Shown in pieces: positions 2,906 through 45,746 of a stretch of DNA of 48,963 nt. Where the stretch lies: positions 1 through 48,963 of the IMG/VR virus record IMGVR_UViG_3300037467_000240; one strand, written 5' to 3'. The position numbers and the translations under genes were made by a program. A model generated the notes under the pieces. The model was not told where the DNA came from and did no database searches. It saw only the letters and a list, made by a program, of their open reading frames with translations. Every line of letters starts with the position of its first letter. Position 1 is the stretch's first letter. This DNA is from a virus (taxonomy: Duplodnaviria; Caudoviricetes).

Positions 2906-3352
2906 CTACTTAACCTTTGTCTGATATCGACCGTTCAGCCAACCATCTTTACAAGATTGACGCTGCTTGGCCTTAGTTTGCGGTGAGGTGATATGCTTCA
3001 GCACCTCCTGACGCCGCTCAGGATCGGCCCACCGACGCTTTGCTGCTTCAGACATGCGCTGTTTGATCTCTGCAGTAAAGCCAACGTGCTTTCCTCCAGA
3101 GGCCATGTTGTAACCACCTGGCTCGATAGTTTGGAAGCGCTCTATCAACAACGCCTCCATCTCATAGCAGTATGACTCAGGACCTTCCAGCAACCTCTTA
3201 AGCGTCATGTTCATGGCGCCGTGCTTGCGTATGGCTCGGCCAATCAACCAATTCGACCTAGCATGTTCCTTGAAGCGGCCTTCGGGATCGATAGACACGC
3301 CTATGTACTGCTGACCGTTGGGGGCCGTTATGCAGTACACAAACGCCATCAT
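2906..3352 (-). CDS. free-standing GIY-YIG homing endonuclease with NUMOD3-like DNA-binding tail
   Basis: FVYCIT...QYIGVS...RFKEH, GYNMASGG, TAEIKQRMSEAAK; lower GC than the neighbouring genes. Confidence 0.85.
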   Translation of the reverse strand: MMAFVYCITAPNGQQYIGVSIDPEGRFKEHARSNWLIGRAIRKHGAMNMTLKRLLEGPESYCYEMEALLIERFQTIEPGGYNMASGGKHVGFTAEIKQRMSEAAKRRWADPERRQEVLKHITSPQTKAKQRQSCKDGWLNGRYQTKVK

Positions 3353-9286: not shown

Positions 9287-9558
9287 TACTTACCTTCTTA
9301 GGTTCGTGGATCATGGATCAATTGAACATAAGAAGGAAAAGGTCGTGTGAATTCAGGGCTCTAAATACTGGTTTCTTACCTTCTTAGGATTAGGGGGTTA
9401 AAATTCCTGGACATAATCGCGGTGTCTGTCTCGGAACTGCAAATCCACCTAAGTAACCTAAGAAGGTAAGAAACGTGCCATTTATCCCTGGAGCTTCCAA
9501 CTGTTAGCCCTACTTAGGAACAATTGGTGCTCGACAGGTGAACCTAAGAAGGTAAGTA
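9287..9558. repeat. AT-rich region with four CTTACCTTCTTAGG repeats in nested inverted arrangement (origin candidate)
   Basis: Forward copies at 9289-9302 and 9375-9388; reverse copies at 9457-9470 and 9543-9556. Confidence 0.85.
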
Positions 9559-38089: not shown

Positions 38090-39775
38090 TCAGCCGAAGG
38101 CTCCAAGCGCCCTGTCAAGAGCGGATTGGTTTTCTTCGCTCGGCATTGATCCGGCTTTCACCTCTCGCGGACCCTCGGGCACCTGCGTGGTCGGCACGCT
38201 GATGAGGCGCTGATAGGCGCGGCTGGCGGCGTCCACCTGGTCCTTGTATGCGCCCCTAGGGAACGTGGCAAGCTCGTTGAGGAAGGCGTCATTCCACGGC
38301 CCCTTGACGATCTTGACGTTGCCATTGTTCCACTGCGAGGCGAGGGGGATGGCGCGGTCAGCCTTGTCGCCTGACTCAGGCGTGATGCTGAACTTGCGGC
38401 CGTCCAGGGCCTTGCCGAGGTGAGCCTTCTGCGACTTGCCGGCCGAGCCGGGGTCTTGGGGCAGGTCCTGGTGCACGCCAAAGTCGTCATCGCGAGCGGT
38501 GTCAACGATGTGTTGCTCAGCCGCTTCGATCTCAGCCCTGACCCTGGTGACGTGCTTCACCACGTAGCCGCCGGTGGGCGTCTTGCCAAGCATCACGCTG
38601 GCTGTGTAGGGGCTGGTCTTGCGCGTGGAACCGGCGATGTCCCAGCCTCGCACCCATTCGCAGTTGGCAGGGGCGAACTCCAAAGGCTCACCGCACGCAT
38701 CCCGCTTGAACATGCCGCCGCCACGAGGCGCGGGGCGCTGCTGCAGCTGACCAGCAACAGCGTAGTCGCCGCCCCATGAGCTGAGCGTGCGCTTGAGGTC
38801 CGCGACCCCCTTGGCAGTGAAGCGCTCAGGGAACAGCAGCTCATCCTCGACCGTGCGGGGGTCAGTGAAGGTCAGCTCCTCCGGCTGCGCAGGATCAGCG
38901 CCCGCTGGTCGCAGGACCGTGTGGCAGCGTCGGCTGGGTTCGAACTCCATGGGCAGCTCTAGGTGCACGTAGGGCAGCCCCTCGGCCAGGATCAGGCCGG
39001 ACACGTCCCGCTCGTGGACGCGCTGCATGATCACCACGAAGGCTGACTCATCCAGATCGTTCACGCGTGAGGGGACAACTTCGGTGAACCACTGCGCCTT
39101 GCTGTCAAGATCCACCTCGCTCTCAGCGGTCTTGACGTTGTGGGGGTCGTCGATGATGAACCTGTCGCCCCGCTCGCCGGTCGCTGTACCGCCGACCGAG
39201 GTGGCAATGCGGAAGCCCCTGTGGTCGTTCTCATACTTCACCTTGGCGTTCTGGTCGCTTGCCATGGCGAAGCGATCACCCCAGAGGTGTTGATACATGT
39301 CGCTTTCGATCAGCTGTCGAGCCCGGCGGTTGTCCCGGATCGTCAGTGACTCGCTGTACGAGGCTGACACGTAGCGCAGGAAGGGCTGGTTGCGTGGCCC
39401 CCACTCCCAGCTGGGCCAGATCACCTGCGTGAGCAGCGACTTCATCATGCCCGGCGGGACGTTGATGAGGAGCTTCTTGATGTGGCCGTAGCTGACCGCC
39501 TCAAGGTGGTCGCAGATCGCCCGGATCGCCCAACCATCCTTCATCTCGCGGCCAGGCTCCAGGACGGGCCACATCATCTTGGCGTAGTCGATCAACGACG
39601 CCTCTGCGATGTCCTGGTTGAGCAGCGCCAAGGCCTTCTGCGCATCGCTGAGGGCATGCGTGACCTTGGTGTGGATCGCGAGCCGAGCGCGCTCCTCCGG
39701 TGGCATGGGGCCGCGCCCCTGCTTGGTCTTGCCGATCAGGTGGTGGCGTCCGTTGTGGGGGTCCTTGAAGGTCAT
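38090..39775 (-). CDS. terL: terminase large subunit
   Basis: NVPPGMMKS Walker A, GERGDRFIIDDP Walker B, IMQRVHERD, WDIA, FPRGAYKDQVDA nuclease motif. Confidence 0.95.
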   Translation of the reverse strand: MTFKDPHNGRHHLIGKTKQGRGPMPPEERARLAIHTKVTHALSDAQKALALLNQDIAEASLIDYAKMMWPVLEPGREMKDGWAIRAICDHLEAVSYGHIKKLLINVPPGMMKSLLTQVIWPSWEWGPRNQPFLRYVSASYSESLTIRDNRRARQLIESDMYQHLWGDRFAMASDQNAKVKYENDHRGFRIATSVGGTATGERGDRFIIDDPHNVKTAESEVDLDSKAQWFTEVVPSRVNDLDESAFVVIMQRVHERDVSGLILAEGLPYVHLELPMEFEPSRRCHTVLRPAGADPAQPEELTFTDPRTVEDELLFPERFTAKGVADLKRTLSSWGGDYAVAGQLQQRPAPRGGGMFKRDACGEPLEFAPANCEWVRGWDIAGSTRKTSPYTASVMLGKTPTGGYVVKHVTRVRAEIEAAEQHIVDTARDDDFGVHQDLPQDPGSAGKSQKAHLGKALDGRKFSITPESGDKADRAIPLASQWNNGNVKIVKGPWNDAFLNELATFPRGAYKDQVDAASRAYQRLISVPTTQVPEGPREVKAGSMPSEENQSALDRALGAFG

Positions 39776-39936
39776 TGCTCGCCGTCCTTGAGCGGCACGA
39801 TGCGGAACCGTTCTCCAGTGGGCAACGTAGCAACCAAACCGCGCAGCTTGGTGCCCTTTGGGAACCGGATCGCTGCCATGATTGCTGCTAGGCGCACTGC
39901 GTCCTCAATCCACTCGTCATTGGGCCGTTCAAACAT
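39772..39936 (-). CDS. small hypothetical protein
   Basis: ATG 39936 overlaps the terS end; its stop overlaps the terL start. Confidence 0.55.
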   Translation of the reverse strand: MFERPNDEWIEDAVRLAAIMAAIRFPKGTKLRGLVATLPTGERFRIVPLKDGEQ

Positions 39937-40483
39937 CGCTGTGATCCTCCAGCTTCTGCTGCGAGATGACCTGATGCTGCTCAGCGGCCTTGACGCGTTG
40001 AGCTTCCAGGTCCTCCATGATGATGTCCCGGATGCGCTTCTTGGCGTCCAGGCTGAGCTGCTTGAAAACGTCCAGGCCGCCGCCGAGCTGACCCTGGTGA
40101 TTGACCGTGATCTCGCTCTTGTTGGCGAACTCAGGATGGAGCTTGGTCGCCATGAGCTCAAGCAGCCGGTCGGACTTCTTTTGAACGTACCCGACCACCT
40201 TGCCCATGTGGAACACCGGCTCGTTCCAGCCGTCCACGGCCCGGCTGCGCACCTCAGTCTTCACGCTCTCAAGGAACTTGGCGTAGGACTCATCCCACAG
40301 CTCTTGCCACTCAAGATCGCCGATAGCCGCTTGCGCGTTGATGGCGTCCATCACGCCGCCATACTTGACGCCGGACAGCTCACAGCTCTTGTACTTCGCC
40401 CCTGTGAGCTCAAGGTTGGTGCATATCTCCTGGAACAACGCCCAAGTGATCTTCACCCTGCTCTCGTCTGGCCGCTTTGCCAT
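39929..40483 (-). CDS. terS: terminase small subunit
   Basis: EVRSRAVDGWNEPVFHMGKVVG...SDRLLELM...PEF; upstream of terL. Confidence 0.82.
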   Translation of the reverse strand: MAKRPDESRVKITWALFQEICTNLELTGAKYKSCELSGVKYGGVMDAINAQAAIGDLEWQELWDESYAKFLESVKTEVRSRAVDGWNEPVFHMGKVVGYVQKKSDRLLELMATKLHPEFANKSEITVNHQGQLGGGLDVFKQLSLDAKKRIRDIIMEDLEAQRVKAAEQHQVISQQKLEDHSDV

Positions 40484-40872
40484 GTGTCGTCCCTAAACGT
40501 TGGTAGCAATGAGGCTCCGCGCCCGCATGCTAATTGAGTCATGAGTTGGAGGGGAGTGGTGTTTCATTGCCCAGAACACGCGCTCACCATTCTCAGCCTA
40601 CTTAGGTTCGTACTTAACGCTGACAATTGAACGTAAGTACACTGAATGCCATCATAAAACACACATAAATATATGTTTCTCTTTACGTTAGTTAAGTAGA
40701 GATTGATATACTTATGTTCTTGTGGGCTATCGGTGCCGGAGCTAGGGAATTCCCTGTCTCGGAATACCCGAGTACCCACGAGCGTGTCAAGTAAGGTAAG
40801 AAAGCCTGGGCAACGCAGCATAATACAACGCTTACCTTTATAGCACTCGTTAAGCCAAAAGTCGCCGTTCGC

Positions 40873-41290
40873 TTAATAACGTGGCCGAATGCCCATGATC
40901 CGGGGGTTTAGGCACCTCCACTCGTATCCCCAATCAAGGTTGGTCGCCCACCCGAGCTTCCGGCTGCTCACTAGCCAGTCCGGCATATTGAGCTTGGCCC
41001 TCAGCTTGTGGATCATTTGATGGAGAGTGTTCGCCGGGTTCGATGGTCGCGGTCTCCCGGCCCAAAGCCCAGCAATCAGGTCCTCCTTGCTGATGTATCG
41101 CAAGTGGTGAGAGCTGGATAGGCTCGCGAGGTGTCGAGCCATGATGAGCTCAATGAGCTCGCCTTCCATGGGCGTCACGTCCACGACCCTTGGATATTGT
41201 CCGATGAATATGTGGACCTTGGAACAAGTGAGCTTTCGCAAGTCGATGTCTCCGCAAGATGCGGCTCTTACATAACTCGCAAAGGATAAT
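40873..41290 (-). CDS. receiver-less OmpR/PhoB-type winged-helix protein (start uncertain)
   Basis: VTPMEGELIELI...ISKEDLIAGLW...NTLHQMIHKLRAKL...LVSSRKLGW. The ORF-track start at 41340 lies inside a terminator, so the true start is downstream. Confidence 0.75.
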
Positions 41291-41324
41291 GGCGCTTCAC
41301 TTATTAAGTGACCTATCCCCGCAC

Positions 41325-41400
41325 AAGAAAAAGCCCCCACCGCTTCACAGCAGCAGGGGCCTAGTCAGGGAGGAAACGCTCAGGGGTGAGCCTGAGCACA
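41325..41400 (-). ncRNA. alpha-r8 / suhB / MmgR-like small RNA
   Basis: Hairpin (41377-41398), then single-stranded UUUCCUCCCU (41367-41376), then GACU and a GC-rich terminator with a U run (41325-41362). Confidence 0.72.
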
Positions 41401-41436
41401 TCGCCCAGGTAACATCGCCCAGGACAGGCTGCCCGT

Positions 41437-41937
41437 CTACTTAGGAGGATTGTCCAGCCGGGGGCCGATGTCTGCTAGTACAACCCCAGCCAGACCGCCT
41501 GTATGGCCGAGCAACCACCAGCTGCCATCTGTTTCAAGCTCAGCAGGTTGCCAACCCTCGCCTTTAACACGCTTCACCCAATAGAACCCCGGCTCCCGCT
41601 TCGGAGGAGGATCAAGGAAGTCAGCCGCGTCCAGGAACATCTGCGCAGCTGGTGCGCCAACACGCGCAGACATACCTCTCAAGGCTTCAGCCAATGAGAC
41701 AGCCTCCACCGACCTCGGCAGCCCCTCCACCATCCAACGCACCATCTCGGTCGCCTGCGTCGCGGTGAACAGGTTCGTCCCGTTGGGCTCATGCCTCATG
41801 GGAGGTTTGCCCTGCTTGGCCATGTACTCCGCGCTGTGCTCAGGCTCGAATACGATCCCACAGTCAGGTGAGAAATTGGCAGGCAGCTTCCACCCTAGGA
41901 AACGGCTCACCATGTGCTTGATTTGTCTGTCATCCAT
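41437..41937 (-). CDS. hypothetical protein
   Basis: SD-preceded ATG 41937; C-terminal EPGFYWVKR module. Confidence 0.65.
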   Translation of the reverse strand: MDDRQIKHMVSRFLGWKLPANFSPDCGIVFEPEHSAEYMAKQGKPPMRHEPNGTNLFTATQATEMVRWMVEGLPRSVEAVSLAEALRGMSARVGAPAAQMFLDAADFLDPPPKREPGFYWVKRVKGEGWQPAELETDGSWWLLGHTGGLAGVVLADIGPRLDNPPK

Positions 41938-42178
41938 CCTTGTTCTCCTTCGATTTAGCTTCCAACTCGGCCACGCGATCAATCAAGCGTTTCTCACCGT
42001 CTAAATCCAACAACGGACTCAGTACAGTTAGCTCATTGTCGTACCAGGTGAACTGCGTGCCGATCAGCTTCCACAGGCCTTGACCGATGTGCTGGGCAAT
42101 CCGGGTTTCACCATGCTTGGCGAACTCGTTGGGCAGCAGCTGCACCCAATACAGGCCCTTCGATCGCTCAGTCACCAC
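41930..42178 (-). CDS. hypothetical protein
   Basis: KGLYWVQ module; coupled to its neighbours. Confidence 0.6.
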   Translation of the reverse strand: MVTERSKGLYWVQLLPNEFAKHGETRIAQHIGQGLWKLIGTQFTWYDNELTVLSPLLDLDGEKRLIDRVAELEAKSKENKDG

Positions 42179-42300
42179 TGAGCCTTATACACGCGATCTC
42201 CATTTACATAACAATCTTGATGTGGATCGCACCTCTCGTAGATTTGCGACCGATTACAAGCCGTCAGTCCCAGCATCACAACAATCAAGATGATCTTCAT
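42172..42300 (-). CDS. small lipoprotein (42 aa)
   Basis: Not in the ORF track. MKIILIVVMLGLTAC NRSQIYERCDPHQDCYVNGDRVYKAQW*; LTAC lipobox; ATGA coupling upstream. Confidence 0.65.
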   Translation of the reverse strand: MKIILIVVMLGLTACNRSQIYERCDPHQDCYVNGDRVYKAQW

Positions 42301-42626
42301 GACTCGTCTGCCTCCTTCATCGCTGATGATTCATCCAACACTATCATTCGCGCTCGCTTACCGCCGACGTGGGCCATGACATGCGCTGTCATGGCAGCCT
42401 CTATCCGGCTGTAGTCCAGCTCCGGCAGCTCCGAAATCGGAGTGGTCATCCTCACCACGATAGGCATCTGCGGCACCATATCAAAGGTCCGTAGCTGGCC
42501 TGCCATGACGCGATACACCCCAGCCCACCGACCAACGCCAGGCTTCATCGTCCGACGACAGAACCTGGCACGATACGCCGGCAGCCTCCGCTTGGCCCGC
42601 TTGTTGACAGTCCTCAGTCGTGGCAT
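42297..42626 (-). CDS. hypothetical protein
   Basis: ATG 42626 with SD AGGAG. Confidence 0.55.
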   Translation of the reverse strand: MPRLRTVNKRAKRRLPAYRARFCRRTMKPGVGRWAGVYRVMAGQLRTFDMVPQMPIVVRMTTPISELPELDYSRIEAAMTAHVMAHVGGKRARMIVLDESSAMKEADES

Positions 42627-43102
42627 CCCTGCTCCTTTGCTAGGCGCTCGGTGAACGCCTCCATCTGCTCCAGCGTGTCGAAGCTGATGCTGTCGTACAT
42701 CGCTCCCTCGCCCACGGTCGCACCGCACTCCACCGCGATCCGGCGCATGGTCTCCATCTCAGTGGCGCTGTTCCGATCCTGGATCAGGCGCTGTGTGAAG
42801 TCCATCCTCAGCAACGGCTCCACAGCAGGTGAACTTGCGACATACGCCCACGCTCCACCTTGGATGGGTCCATCCCATCTGGCGTAGCTTCGATTGAACA
42901 CATCGCTGTGCTTGTAACCGTGGTGTACAGATTCAATCAGGCCAGCCCAGACCTCATCAGCGCTCGCGCCATCCCACCTGACATAGCTCGTGTTGGACAC
43001 GCCCCACACCTTGGACGTCCGGCGGCGCGTGAAGGCCTTGTGAGACCATTCCCACGACAGCAGTCGCCTCAACCGGCGCTTGTTCGCCGTCCGCAGCCTC
43101 AT
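42614..43102 (-). CDS. hypothetical protein
   Basis: ATG 43102 overlapping the upstream stop. Confidence 0.55.
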   Translation of the reverse strand: MRLRTANKRRLRRLLSWEWSHKAFTRRRTSKVWGVSNTSYVRWDGASADEVWAGLIESVHHGYKHSDVFNRSYARWDGPIQGGAWAYVASSPAVEPLLRMDFTQRLIQDRNSATEMETMRRIAVECGATVGEGAMYDSISFDTLEQMEAFTERLAKEQGCHD

Positions 43103-43335
43103 CGTTTGGCCCCCTTCATGTAGGCCCACGGCCAGACGTTCCTGATCCTATAGCCGTCCAGCGACATGCGTTTGGCTTCAGCCAACGGCAGCTTCATCAG
43201 CCCCACAGCGCTACCGGATTGGTAGATGCTAGCCGCAAGGGCAAGGTGCAGCGTCGTTAGCACCCCTCTGCGCTCCAGATAGATGTTAGCAGGCAGCCCC
43301 TCTTCAGGGCCGACGTTGAATGTCCGCAGCCTCAC
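43099..43335 (-). CDS. hypothetical protein
   Basis: Coupled GTGA/ATGA overlaps at both ends. Confidence 0.55.
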   Translation of the reverse strand: MRLRTFNVGPEEGLPANIYLERRGVLTTLHLALAASIYQSGSAVGLMKLPLAEAKRMSLDGYRIRNVWPWAYMKGAKR

Positions 43336-43820
43336 GACGCACTCACCGACATCAGCTCGCTCACCTTCCCCGGCTGGATGCGATCAAAGGCGCGCTCCAT
43401 GCCCGTGTACTGGAAGGATTTGTTGCGGTTGCGCACCAGCTCGGCGCGGAGATAGCCGTGGTCCTCCACCACCGGCGACAACACGGTGATGTTGCTAACC
43501 CATCGCAGCTGGTAGAGGTCCCCGGCTGCGTCGGTCACGTAGTCCCCGGCCTGGGCCGGGAGGCTGGTGTTCATGTAGCGCTGGACCGCCGCTTCCAGCG
43601 CCGTGACCCACGCTAGGGTGAACGCGTTATCCACACCCTTGCTGGTCAGGAGGCTCTGGGTCAGCTCACGGCCCAACACCGTCACGATGCTCTCAAGAGC
43701 ATACAGCTCCATCAGGTCCGGCAGGTCTGCGTCCTCCCGCCGCCTGAGGTCTTGGGCCATCGTGGTGAAGGCGTCAGCCATCCGACTGATCACCGTGATC
43801 GAGCTGTTGTTCTGAATCAT
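43332..43820 (-). CDS. hypothetical protein
   Basis: Coupled ORF. Confidence 0.6.
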   Translation of the reverse strand: MIQNNSSITVISRMADAFTTMAQDLRRREDADLPDLMELYALESIVTVLGRELTQSLLTSKGVDNAFTLAWVTALEAAVQRYMNTSLPAQAGDYVTDAAGDLYQLRWVSNITVLSPVVEDHGYLRAELVRNRNKSFQYTGMERAFDRIQPGKVSELMSVSAS

Positions 43821-44005
43821 TTCTTGTCCCTCTGCTCTGTTCTAGCTCTACGGATACAAGTTGCATGGGCGTAGGCAATCGCACCAGCTGGCACTTCGTA
43901 CCCAAGGAATTTCAAAATCGTGGTTGAGCCTATGCCTCCTGGCTTCCCACAGATGCCGCAGCACCGGACGTTCGGATCAGATCGCTTGAGCGGGATGCCC
44001 ATCAC
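43817..44005 (-). CDS. small Zn-finger-like protein
   Basis: CGIC...HATC. Confidence 0.5.
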   Translation of the reverse strand: MMGIPLKRSDPNVRCCGICGKPGGIGSTTILKFLGYEVPAGAIAYAHATCIRRARTEQRDKK

Positions 44006-44903: not shown

Positions 44904-44936
44904 CTCAGTAGCTCCAACTCAGTTTCTAAGACAACT

Positions 44937-45388: not shown

Positions 45389-45415
45389 TGTAGCTTGAGG
45401 CGGGGATAGGTCAAG
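45389..45415 (-). promoter_or_regulatory. sigma70-type early promoter with TGACCTATCCCC box
   Basis: cTTGACctatccccgcctcaaGCTACAgc; overlaps the stop of the GcrA-like gene. Confidence 0.72.
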
Positions 45416-45746
45416 AGGATTGATTGTCAACCCACCTCCGCACCAGGCGGCCCTTCCCGTCCCTCTGGGCAGTCTGGGAGAACTCTCGGGCACCGCCGCC
45501 CGCGTGGTGTAGACCCAGCCTATACGCACGTCCCACAACCGCGTTGTGGGTAGCTCCAAGCCGAGCGGCGATCACACGTACGGGCACGCCCTGCGCATAC
45601 CAGCGTCGCAGCTTCCCGTCCCTGTCGTCAGTGTGCCAGAAGGGGTGGAAGCGCTGCTGCTTGAGGATGACATGGCTGCGATCCTCCTGACCTTCCTCAA
45701 GCATGTGGAGATGGTCATCAGCAACATCAGGGTCTAGGATACGCAT
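45411..45746 (-). CDS. GcrA-family DNA-binding-domain protein
   Basis: WHTDDRDGKLRRWYAQGVPVRVIAARLGATHNAVVGRAYRLGL aligns by eye with the GcrA N-terminus (WTDERV..L..LW.EG.SAS.IA..LG.TRNAVIGK.HRLGL). Confidence 0.8.
   Translation of the reverse strand: MRILDPDVADDHLHMLEEGQEDRSHVILKQQRFHPFWHTDDRDGKLRRWYAQGVPVRVIAARLGATHNAVVGRAYRLGLHHAGGGAREFSQTAQRDGKGRLVRRWVDNQSS

Follow-up and report, generated by a model that had tools for sequence, protein, structure and literature searches.

A virus genome carries on its minus strand, at the end of its early and middle genes, an element that by published sequence and structure traits is to be classed as a diverged phage-borne alpha-r8 RNA, and neither as an Rfam member nor as an MmgR ortholog. 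The window analysed here is the whole stretch of 48,963 nucleotides, a linear virus record that is 73% complete (IMG/VR IMGVR_UViG_3300037467_000240). The sequence of the element, its predicted structure, its family match, its gene context and the wide carriage of such elements by phages are direct observations. On balance the RNA would most likely be an Hfq-dependent, SisA-like repressor of host mRNAs that doubles as an operon terminator. The RNA family is already known; new here is a leader that is complementary to the upstream coding sequence.

An alpha-r8 element on the minus strand

Inspection of the sequence located the hairpin, the decamer, the terminator and the tandem repeat of the first-pass annotation, all on the minus strand and where that annotation had placed them (Table 1). 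The decamer occurs once in the window (0.024 copies expected). The terminator at 41361–41325 is also picked up by a terminator scan, and it is the first terminator-like site past the upstream ORF and the sole one on the minus strand in 39000–44000. In the family register hairpin 1 has a 4-bp GCUC/GAGC stem, the family consensus being GCCC/GGGC. The fold of the 112-nt stretch first annotated has z = -2.27 against 200 shuffles. Five exact tandem repeats of at least 11 nt with a period below 30 are found in the window, and the pair at 41423–41398 is the only one with a period of 14; it is not listed by Tandem Repeats Finder, and as a sequence feature it appears modest on its own.

Table 1. Coordinates of the RNA element and its neighbouring features
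Feature	Position	Strand	Details
Alpha-r8 (suhB/MmgR/SisA-type) sRNA core	41325..41399	minus	~75 nt; 5' end inferred; RF00519 match and fold
Hairpin 1	41378..41397	minus	Arms 41397-41391 and 41384-41378; 7-bp stem, -12.2 kcal/mol
Conserved seed block	41363..41379	minus	Includes decamer UUUCCUCCCU at 41376-41367
Intrinsic terminator	41325..41361	minus	Stem 41361-41332 (13-14 bp), U-rich tail to 41325, -24.8 kcal/mol
Exact 12-nt direct repeats, two copies, period 14	41398..41423	minus	Copies 41423-41412 and 41409-41398
5' leader and 5' arm of hairpin 1	41388..41426	minus	Complementary to upstream coding sequence 41847-41808
Long-range stem partner	41808..41847	minus	Within upstream ORF; protein-level conserved stretch
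CCTAAGTAG motif	41437..41445	minus	Overlies stop codon of upstream ORF; putative promoter or binding element of the phage
Upstream ORF	41437..41937	minus	~166 aa
Winged-helix DNA-binding protein, OmpR/PhoB-type, stand-alone	40873..41241	minus	PF00486, 27.3 bits (cut-off 26.2)
Terminase small subunit (terS)	39929..40483	minus	phrog_4044, E 8e-22; opens packaging/structural run
7-1-7 palindrome	41297..41311		Between terminator and winged-helix gene; seen in sequence; candidate operator

The Rfam search that the first-pass annotation had proposed came out as expected in part. At relaxed thresholds the best family is suhB (RF00519), matched over the full length of its model (1–77) at 41318–41398 on the minus strand with 35.9 bits and E-values of 6e-6 (local search) and 2e-7 (genome), but the score lies 5 bits short of the gathering threshold of 41 bits. 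Rfam would not annotate the element, and no family passes its gathering score anywhere in the window. The weak matches to NsiR1 (24.6 bits, next best), CRISPR-DR33 and ctRNA reflect the terminator and were rejected. Alpha-R8 RNAs are described as having a terminator and a single-stranded UUUCCUCCCU located 3' of a weak hairpin, with the decamer as the core of the family (Vogt et al., PMC12559287). In the present element the decamer is exact (41376–41367) and is predicted to be single-stranded (0.93–0.99 unpaired for 5' ends at 41399–41392), the hairpin in the Rfam register is the weak 4-bp GCUC/GAGC stem, although folds prefer the stronger 7-bp register, and a Rho-independent terminator follows at 41361–41325. 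The seed block equals the family consensus, and the loop and terminator stem differ from every aligned homolog.

Covariation in hairpin 1 was assessed on the 86 terminator-bearing sites out of 112 distinct sites. Of the 52 sites with a GGGC arm, 45 carry GCCC upstream and none carries GCUC alone; for GAGC arms the corresponding sequence is GCUC in 9 of 21, GCCC in two and neither in ten. We take the change from GCCC/GGGC to GCUC/GAGC to be compensated. A 20-row alignment, hand-picked to contain both stem variants, has 10 C-G and 5 U-A at the hairpin 1 pair, with slid controls not clearly worse. The alpha-r8 assignment of the first-pass annotation is thus supported by the match along the whole Rfam model, by the published traits, all three of which are present, and by the compensated hairpin 1 pair. 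Where that annotation speaks of a mimic of a host sRNA, a captured homolog is the better reading. The element bears the decamer itself and not its complement, unlike a CrfA-type sponge, and no covariance match to the CrfA sponge (RF01527) is found in the window at E<=0.1.

Linkage to an N-formylglutamate amidohydrolase (FGase) gene is typical of the main chromosomal alpha-r8 copy, i.e. the MmgR/SisA orthologs, and the subfamily carries the name alpha-r8s1. The neighbours here are an ORF of unassigned function and the winged-helix gene; because FGase adjacency is absent, the element is by synteny not an MmgR/SisA ortholog but rather an extra, phage-borne copy. SisA-D of Caulobacter crescentus, as described in PMC12559287, have the hairpin, UUUCCUCCCU and the intrinsic terminator in the same order and are of similar length (SisA is 83 nt by its coordinates), whereas the present RNA, known from its sequence, is phage-encoded, has no adjacent FGase gene, a hairpin 1 that can be extended to 7 bp and a leader complementary to the upstream gene. 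MmgR of Sinorhizobium meliloti, reported as a 77-nt RNA under NtrC and AniA control, shares the full-length covariance match to RF00519 (PMC1273637, PMC7143759); the present RNA differs in scoring below 41 bits, in its GAGC/GCUC stem variant and in having no evident promoter of its own. Multiple suhB copies without fixed neighbours were reported by Corbino et al. (PMC1273637). In Sphingopyxis granuli TFA, SuhB is described as homologous to MmgR and as a repressor of the translation of thnR; it is chromosomal and LysR-activated, and the word 'phage' is absent from the main text of that report (bioRxiv 10.64898/2025.12.09.693200).

Gene context and distribution among phages

The virus belongs to the RDJL-like siphoviruses and encodes GcrA. 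PHROGs matches in the window comprise ribonucleotide reductase, Dda-like and other helicases, endolysin, tape measure, capsid, portal and both terminase subunits, and the capsid protein is 56% identical to that of Roseobacter phage RDJL Phi1. The GcrA domain (PF07750; 31.6 bits against a cut-off of 26.9) lies in the protein encoded at 45411–45746, a homolog of the host cell-cycle regulator. This domain and the endolysin homologs with an organism name, five of six of which are alphaproteobacterial, point to an alphaproteobacterial host, which bears out the setting assumed in the first-pass annotation. No integrase was seen in the 73%-complete record.

The gene layout bears out equally that the RNA lies at the 3' end of an early/middle gene run. 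This run is followed by the RNA with its terminator, a transcription factor gene, an AT-richer gap (47% GC) and the packaging genes; the RNA sits between the last early ORF and the OmpR-type DNA-binding gene, ~840 nt ahead of terS. The upstream ORF, 38 nt past whose stop codon the alpha-r8 element begins, is without Pfam or PHROG match. Its N-terminal domain, whose function is unassigned, is common to 45 other proteins and CcrColossus gp101, and an atlas search with this domain returned no named family. The winged-helix gene encodes 122 aa if it starts at a TTG behind a GGAG site, or 98 aa from an ATG as called in the protein collection; its product may regulate the late genes, and the protein search returned no close homolog for it.

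Several other features of the genome were noted. A GIY-YIG homing-endonuclease-like gene (2906–3352) lies immediately 5' of the ribonucleotide reductase gene. The non-coding stretch 9287–9558, between helicase and lysis genes, contains several inverted repeats of 14–19 nt built on a CCTAAGAAGG unit, making it by sequence a candidate origin or operator array; a similar element recurs ahead of terS at ~40640–40598. AGAAACTGA is present in six copies (0.1 expected), five of them on the coding (minus) strand at 44927, 26448, 10699, 9226 and 7327, each 17–28 nt ahead of a start codon, and is a candidate phage promoter or translational operator.

An exact search of IMG/VR with the 17-base seed pattern gave at least 120 loci. 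We dropped 49 of these, a single near-identical group of 38–44% GC in which the 17-mer lacks hairpin context; L002, the member of this group that was scored, does not match RF00519. Fifty records were scored, namely 49 of the other 71 listed loci and the one from the dropped group (16 proviruses, whose edges may hold host DNA, three records with terminal repeats and 31 linear ones). RF00519 is matched at E<=0.001 in 47 of the 50, 28 of them over the 41-bit cut-off; because the records were chosen by the exact seed pattern, this proportion is no frequency among phages. Cultured phages also have matches: ppBeUSDA76-1 (62.8 bits), ppBdUSDA122-1 (32), BDU-MI-1 (37), Mwe-JY08 (62.8) and vB_MweS-yong2 (47). 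These five copies lie among phage genes, in neighbourhoods that differ from the present one, and carry no RNA annotation in the stretches inspected. PP395640.1 (62.8 bits) and OM681334.1 (47 bits) are deposited as Microcystis phages and have alpha-r8 copies over the cut-off, which suggests that their hosts are alphaproteobacterial. Judged by these sequences, carriage of alpha-r8 by phages appears common.

The flanks were surveyed at 43 loci, for which 95 of 159 picked ORFs were scanned. A PHROG neighbour was found at 26 loci, and at five a NusG-like antiterminator gene (phrog_6386; Pfam NusG) precedes the RNA. Elsewhere the RNA follows capsid, terL, endolysin or polymerase genes or lies opposite repressors or integrase, with the seed kept, and in two Bradyrhizobium phages it is ahead of HNH and terL, a late-leader position. 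A recurrent prophage layout (L020, L022, L046, L053, L077; L123, L125) has the NusG-like gene, the alpha-r8 RNA and in some cases HNH and terminase genes, resembling a late leader.

Within the phage's own kin the RNA appears sporadic. None of 40 IMG/VR records of the same capsid family (43–59% capsid identity; two complete) matches at E<=0.01, so phage terminators do not by default score this high. RDJL Phi1 and RHph_Y52 have no RF00519 match at E<=0.001, nor do RHph_X3_2, R6L and Tedan at E<=0.01; Pkon1, with 17.7 bits, scores highest among these six cultured relatives. The conservation of the decamer in related phages, which the first-pass annotation had named as a test, therefore fails in distant ones (0/40 records; six cultured relatives at 17.7 bits or less). 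The exact element is found elsewhere only in a 99.99% identical contig (L122), and scans for kin with terL, terS, capsid and helicase returned only near-identical contigs (L122, L236) or distant ones. A contig of 73.8 kb encodes the same proteins. A degenerate alpha-r8-like element of 20.8 bits lies just past a stop codon in L228 (G092:C1:8253-8337, minus strand), whose terS is 36% identical.

No close bacterial copy is present among 22 exact-pattern matches in 185,579 species genomes. The metagenome pattern scan gave 31 matches, none akin to the window by blastn, and one of these (L200) resembles bacterial alpha-r8. Contigs of four DNA runs contain no variant letters; a run without coverage over ~41214–41583 (X12) carries no weight either way. 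The lack of a close bacterial copy and the consensus seed amid a diverged loop and terminator stem fit an element long resident in phages whose seed is under selection. The same picture would arise with no selection at all if the element had been acquired recently from a host not yet sampled.

The 5' end and a leader antisense to the upstream gene

The accessibility of the decamer depends on where the RNA starts. The first-pass annotation had the decamer unpaired, which holds if the RNA starts near 41399 (mean 0.98), but over the 112-nt extent it gave, the probability is ~0.5. The predicted unpaired probability is 0.47–0.82 for longer 5' ends, and in long precursors the seed is mostly paired (0.19–0.51 unpaired). 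Because long precursors mask the seed, a processing step or a promoter must be assumed. Around the RNA the promoter scan detected no sigma-70 consensus. By eye, an extended -10-like site (41414–41406) and a -35-like hexamer (41439–41434) are weak candidates, neither of which passes the scan; CtrA-type boxes are absent. The CCTAAGTAG motif has three copies in the window (0.035 expected), all on the minus, i.e. coding, strand (41445, 40606 and 9518), one of them ahead of terS. Candidates for the origin of the 5' end are release by cleavage, possibly at the long-range stem described below, and a start near the CCTAAGTAG motif. An alternative hairpin between the tandem repeat and the 5' arm was rejected (pairing probability <=0.09), as was the tandem repeat as a specific mask of the seed, since 26% of 200 shuffled leaders mask equally.

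A repeat finder detected a 16/17-nt inverted match between 41404–41388 and 41847–41831 in the upstream ORF. In the fold of 41940–41320 it extends to 34 pairs between 41426–41388 and 41847–41808, most with a probability above 0.9 and 13 of them contiguous Watson–Crick pairs. The pairing of the 39-nt leader takes in both tandem repeats, so the repeat, to which the first-pass annotation gave no role, belongs to a leader that can pair with the upstream gene. The duplex ranks second of 2783 windows, first on the coding strand, and none of 150 random local controls is as strong. Its energy of -55.3 kcal/mol compares with -41.7 ± 2.9 kcal/mol in 300 dinucleotide shuffles, none of which reaches it, and the cofold gain of -24.6 compares with -7.3 ± 3.1 for 148 random fragments, again with none reaching it. 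The residues that the partner stretch encodes are conserved among homologs (21 of 45 aligned); given this conservation at the protein level, it is the non-coding side that matches. Pairing is equally good in 4.7% of random synonymous versions of the partner, which leaves the coding side with no clear mark of tuning. Perfect inverted repeats of at least 12 nt within 1.5 kb are not rare, 20 being listed in this phage genome. A further seed pairing at 41896–41886 in the upstream ORF ranks 28th on the coding strand and was rejected.

The same leader test at 48 phage loci puts the present locus at the extreme, the other 47 having -2.2 ± 3.9 kcal/mol relative to shuffles. The antisense leader was found post hoc and is not general among phage alpha-r8 copies; the four cultured-phage copies tested have no comparable one (yong2 lies outside the pattern set). 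Long-range stems processed by RNase III exist in T7 early mRNA and in lambda sib. The present stem, with 34 predicted pairs, 13 of them contiguous, is stronger than controls and is a candidate for such cutting. In origin the complementarity is likely to be genuine, an inverted copy being one example, and the phage may or may not make use of it.

Function of the RNA

Throughout the alphaproteobacteria, alpha-r8 RNAs are reported to govern how nutrients are taken up and carbon is stored (PMC12559287, PMC7143759). Together with Hfq, SisA represses genes for carbon scavenging, TonB-dependent receptors among them, through the decamer and is itself sponged by CrfA (PMC12559287), and MmgR limits PHB (PMC7143759). 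We propose that an alphaproteobacterial alpha-r8 gene was captured by the phage and kept at the end of the early/middle run, where its terminator would close the early transcript and supply the U-tail for Hfq. The ~75-nt RNA (~41399–41325) would arise by processing of a longer transcript or from a weak local promoter. Its exposed UUUCCUCCCU would pair, as in SisA, with GGAGG-rich ribosome-binding regions of host mRNAs; repression of host mRNAs, also put forward in the first-pass annotation, is reasonable to expect from the intact seed. Scavenging transporters, alternative carbon use and carbon storage, which make up the alpha-r8 regulon of the host, would then be held repressed during infection, independently of the host's own nutrient control. 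Expression, the 5' end, Hfq binding, the targets and the benefit to the phage are what we infer in this scheme. Taken together, the analysis makes it somewhat probable that the phage makes its own alpha-r8 copy and imposes this repression on the host during infection. There are precedents for parts of the scheme. A partial SdsR carried by a prophage illustrates phage transfer of a host sRNA (PMC5913331). In Shiga-toxin lambdoid phages, the terminator ahead of the late genes is described as giving rise to StxS, an RNA that binds Hfq, matures by processing into a stable form of 74 nt and has host and phage mRNA targets (PMC7547250). StxS, which comes from the late promoter of an E. coli prophage, is a functional analogue and no homology is claimed; the present RNA is of a captured host family and is parted from terS by a transcription-factor gene, in a 73%-complete record in which no integrase is seen.

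Control of the upstream gene could instead be the main job of the RNA, with the leader (41426–41388) pairing with 41847–41808 either in cis or in trans, as a ~106-nt RNA from near CCTAAGTAG; an RNase III cut would silence the last early gene and free the core with a 5' end at ~41400–41392. The 16/17 inverted match with its 34 pairs exceeds the local, shuffle and cofold controls, its partner is conserved as protein, so that the matching side is the non-coding one, it starts roughly where an RNA from CCTAAGTAG would begin, and folds from 41399–41392 free the seed (0.93–0.99). The pairing was, however, found post hoc in a genome where 12-nt inverted repeats are not rare, 4.7% of synonymous partner versions pair equally and the locus is the extreme of 48 rather than typical; moreover, ribosomes translating the upstream ORF would open the cis stem, and template switching would leave an inverted copy of identical appearance that needs no function. 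We consider this unlikely, though ahead of the readings that follow. It is rather improbable that only the terminator matters, i.e. that a captured or relic element terminates the operon and gates the late genes in front of the winged-helix gene and terS, with the seed as passenger. Its position 38 nt past the stop codon as the sole minus-strand terminator-like site in 39000–44000 is consistent with this, as are the sub-threshold score, the absence from relatives, the NusG-like antiterminator gene ahead of the RNA at 5 of 43 loci and the copies before HNH and terL in two Bradyrhizobium phages. Yet a terminator needs neither the seed block nor the compensated hairpin, both of which are intact here, other phage copies keep the seed in varied positions, no close bacterial donor was found, and StxS, as described, is a terminated late-leader RNA able to be both (PMC7547250).

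A decoy role, in which the RNA occupies Hfq or soaks up a host sponge RNA such as CrfA and thereby spares the host alpha-r8 RNAs, has parallels in CrfA, reported to bind the same decamer in SisA-D (PMC12559287), and in the VP882 RNA VpdS, reported to compete for Hfq (PMC12197685). The sponge is described for Caulobacter only in the literature examined, however. Because an intact seed would repress mRNAs directly, such a role supplements the preferred explanation, repression of host mRNAs, more than it replaces it, and taken as the main function we regard it as a long shot. Self-repression, in which the seed blocks the phage's own late ribosome-binding sites, is very improbable despite the location just ahead of the late genes and a few late starts whose duplexes with the 17-nt seed block have energies of -13 to -16.5 kcal/mol. 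The first-pass annotation spoke of GGAGG-led late genes, which the analysis does not bear out: with starts assigned from ORF lists, some of which may be off, none of 28 late genes carries GGAGG in -25..+3 and none pairs over more than 5 nt with the decamer. The longest Watson–Crick match of 5 nt is reached or exceeded by 9% of random windows (469/5000). GGAGG occurs in 9 of 23 late genes of RDJL Phi1 and in 0 of 35 of RHph_Y52; since the latter has no alpha-r8 match, these counts speak neither for nor against avoidance of GGAGG as self-protection.

The preferred repressor function and the antisense leader may also be combined in one model. The RNA would be two-headed, with a captured host regulator at its 3' end and a 5' leader antisense to the last early gene. 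Cutting of the stem would silence that gene and unmask the seed, timing the take-over of the nutrient regulon to the early-to-late switch, and alpha-r8 would have been captured repeatedly by unrelated alphaproteobacterial phages. As a whole this model is speculative, and we put its chances as low.

We found no phage-borne alpha-r8 RNA in the literature searched, a claim limited by the fact that the 2016 work of Lagares et al., which reportedly defined the alpha-r8 family, may list prophage copies. The main text of a 2025 review of phage sRNAs has no Caulobacter, Sinorhizobium or Alphaproteobacteria (PMC12197685). The proposal can be tested directly with validated SisA reporters, a sisA-D deletion strain and three cultured Bradyrhizobium phages that carry a copy. 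If true, phage-borne copies would be RNA-level auxiliary metabolic regulators that protein annotation has overlooked, and the antisense leader, if it works, illustrates the way in which an sRNA, once captured, is built into the timing of the phage.
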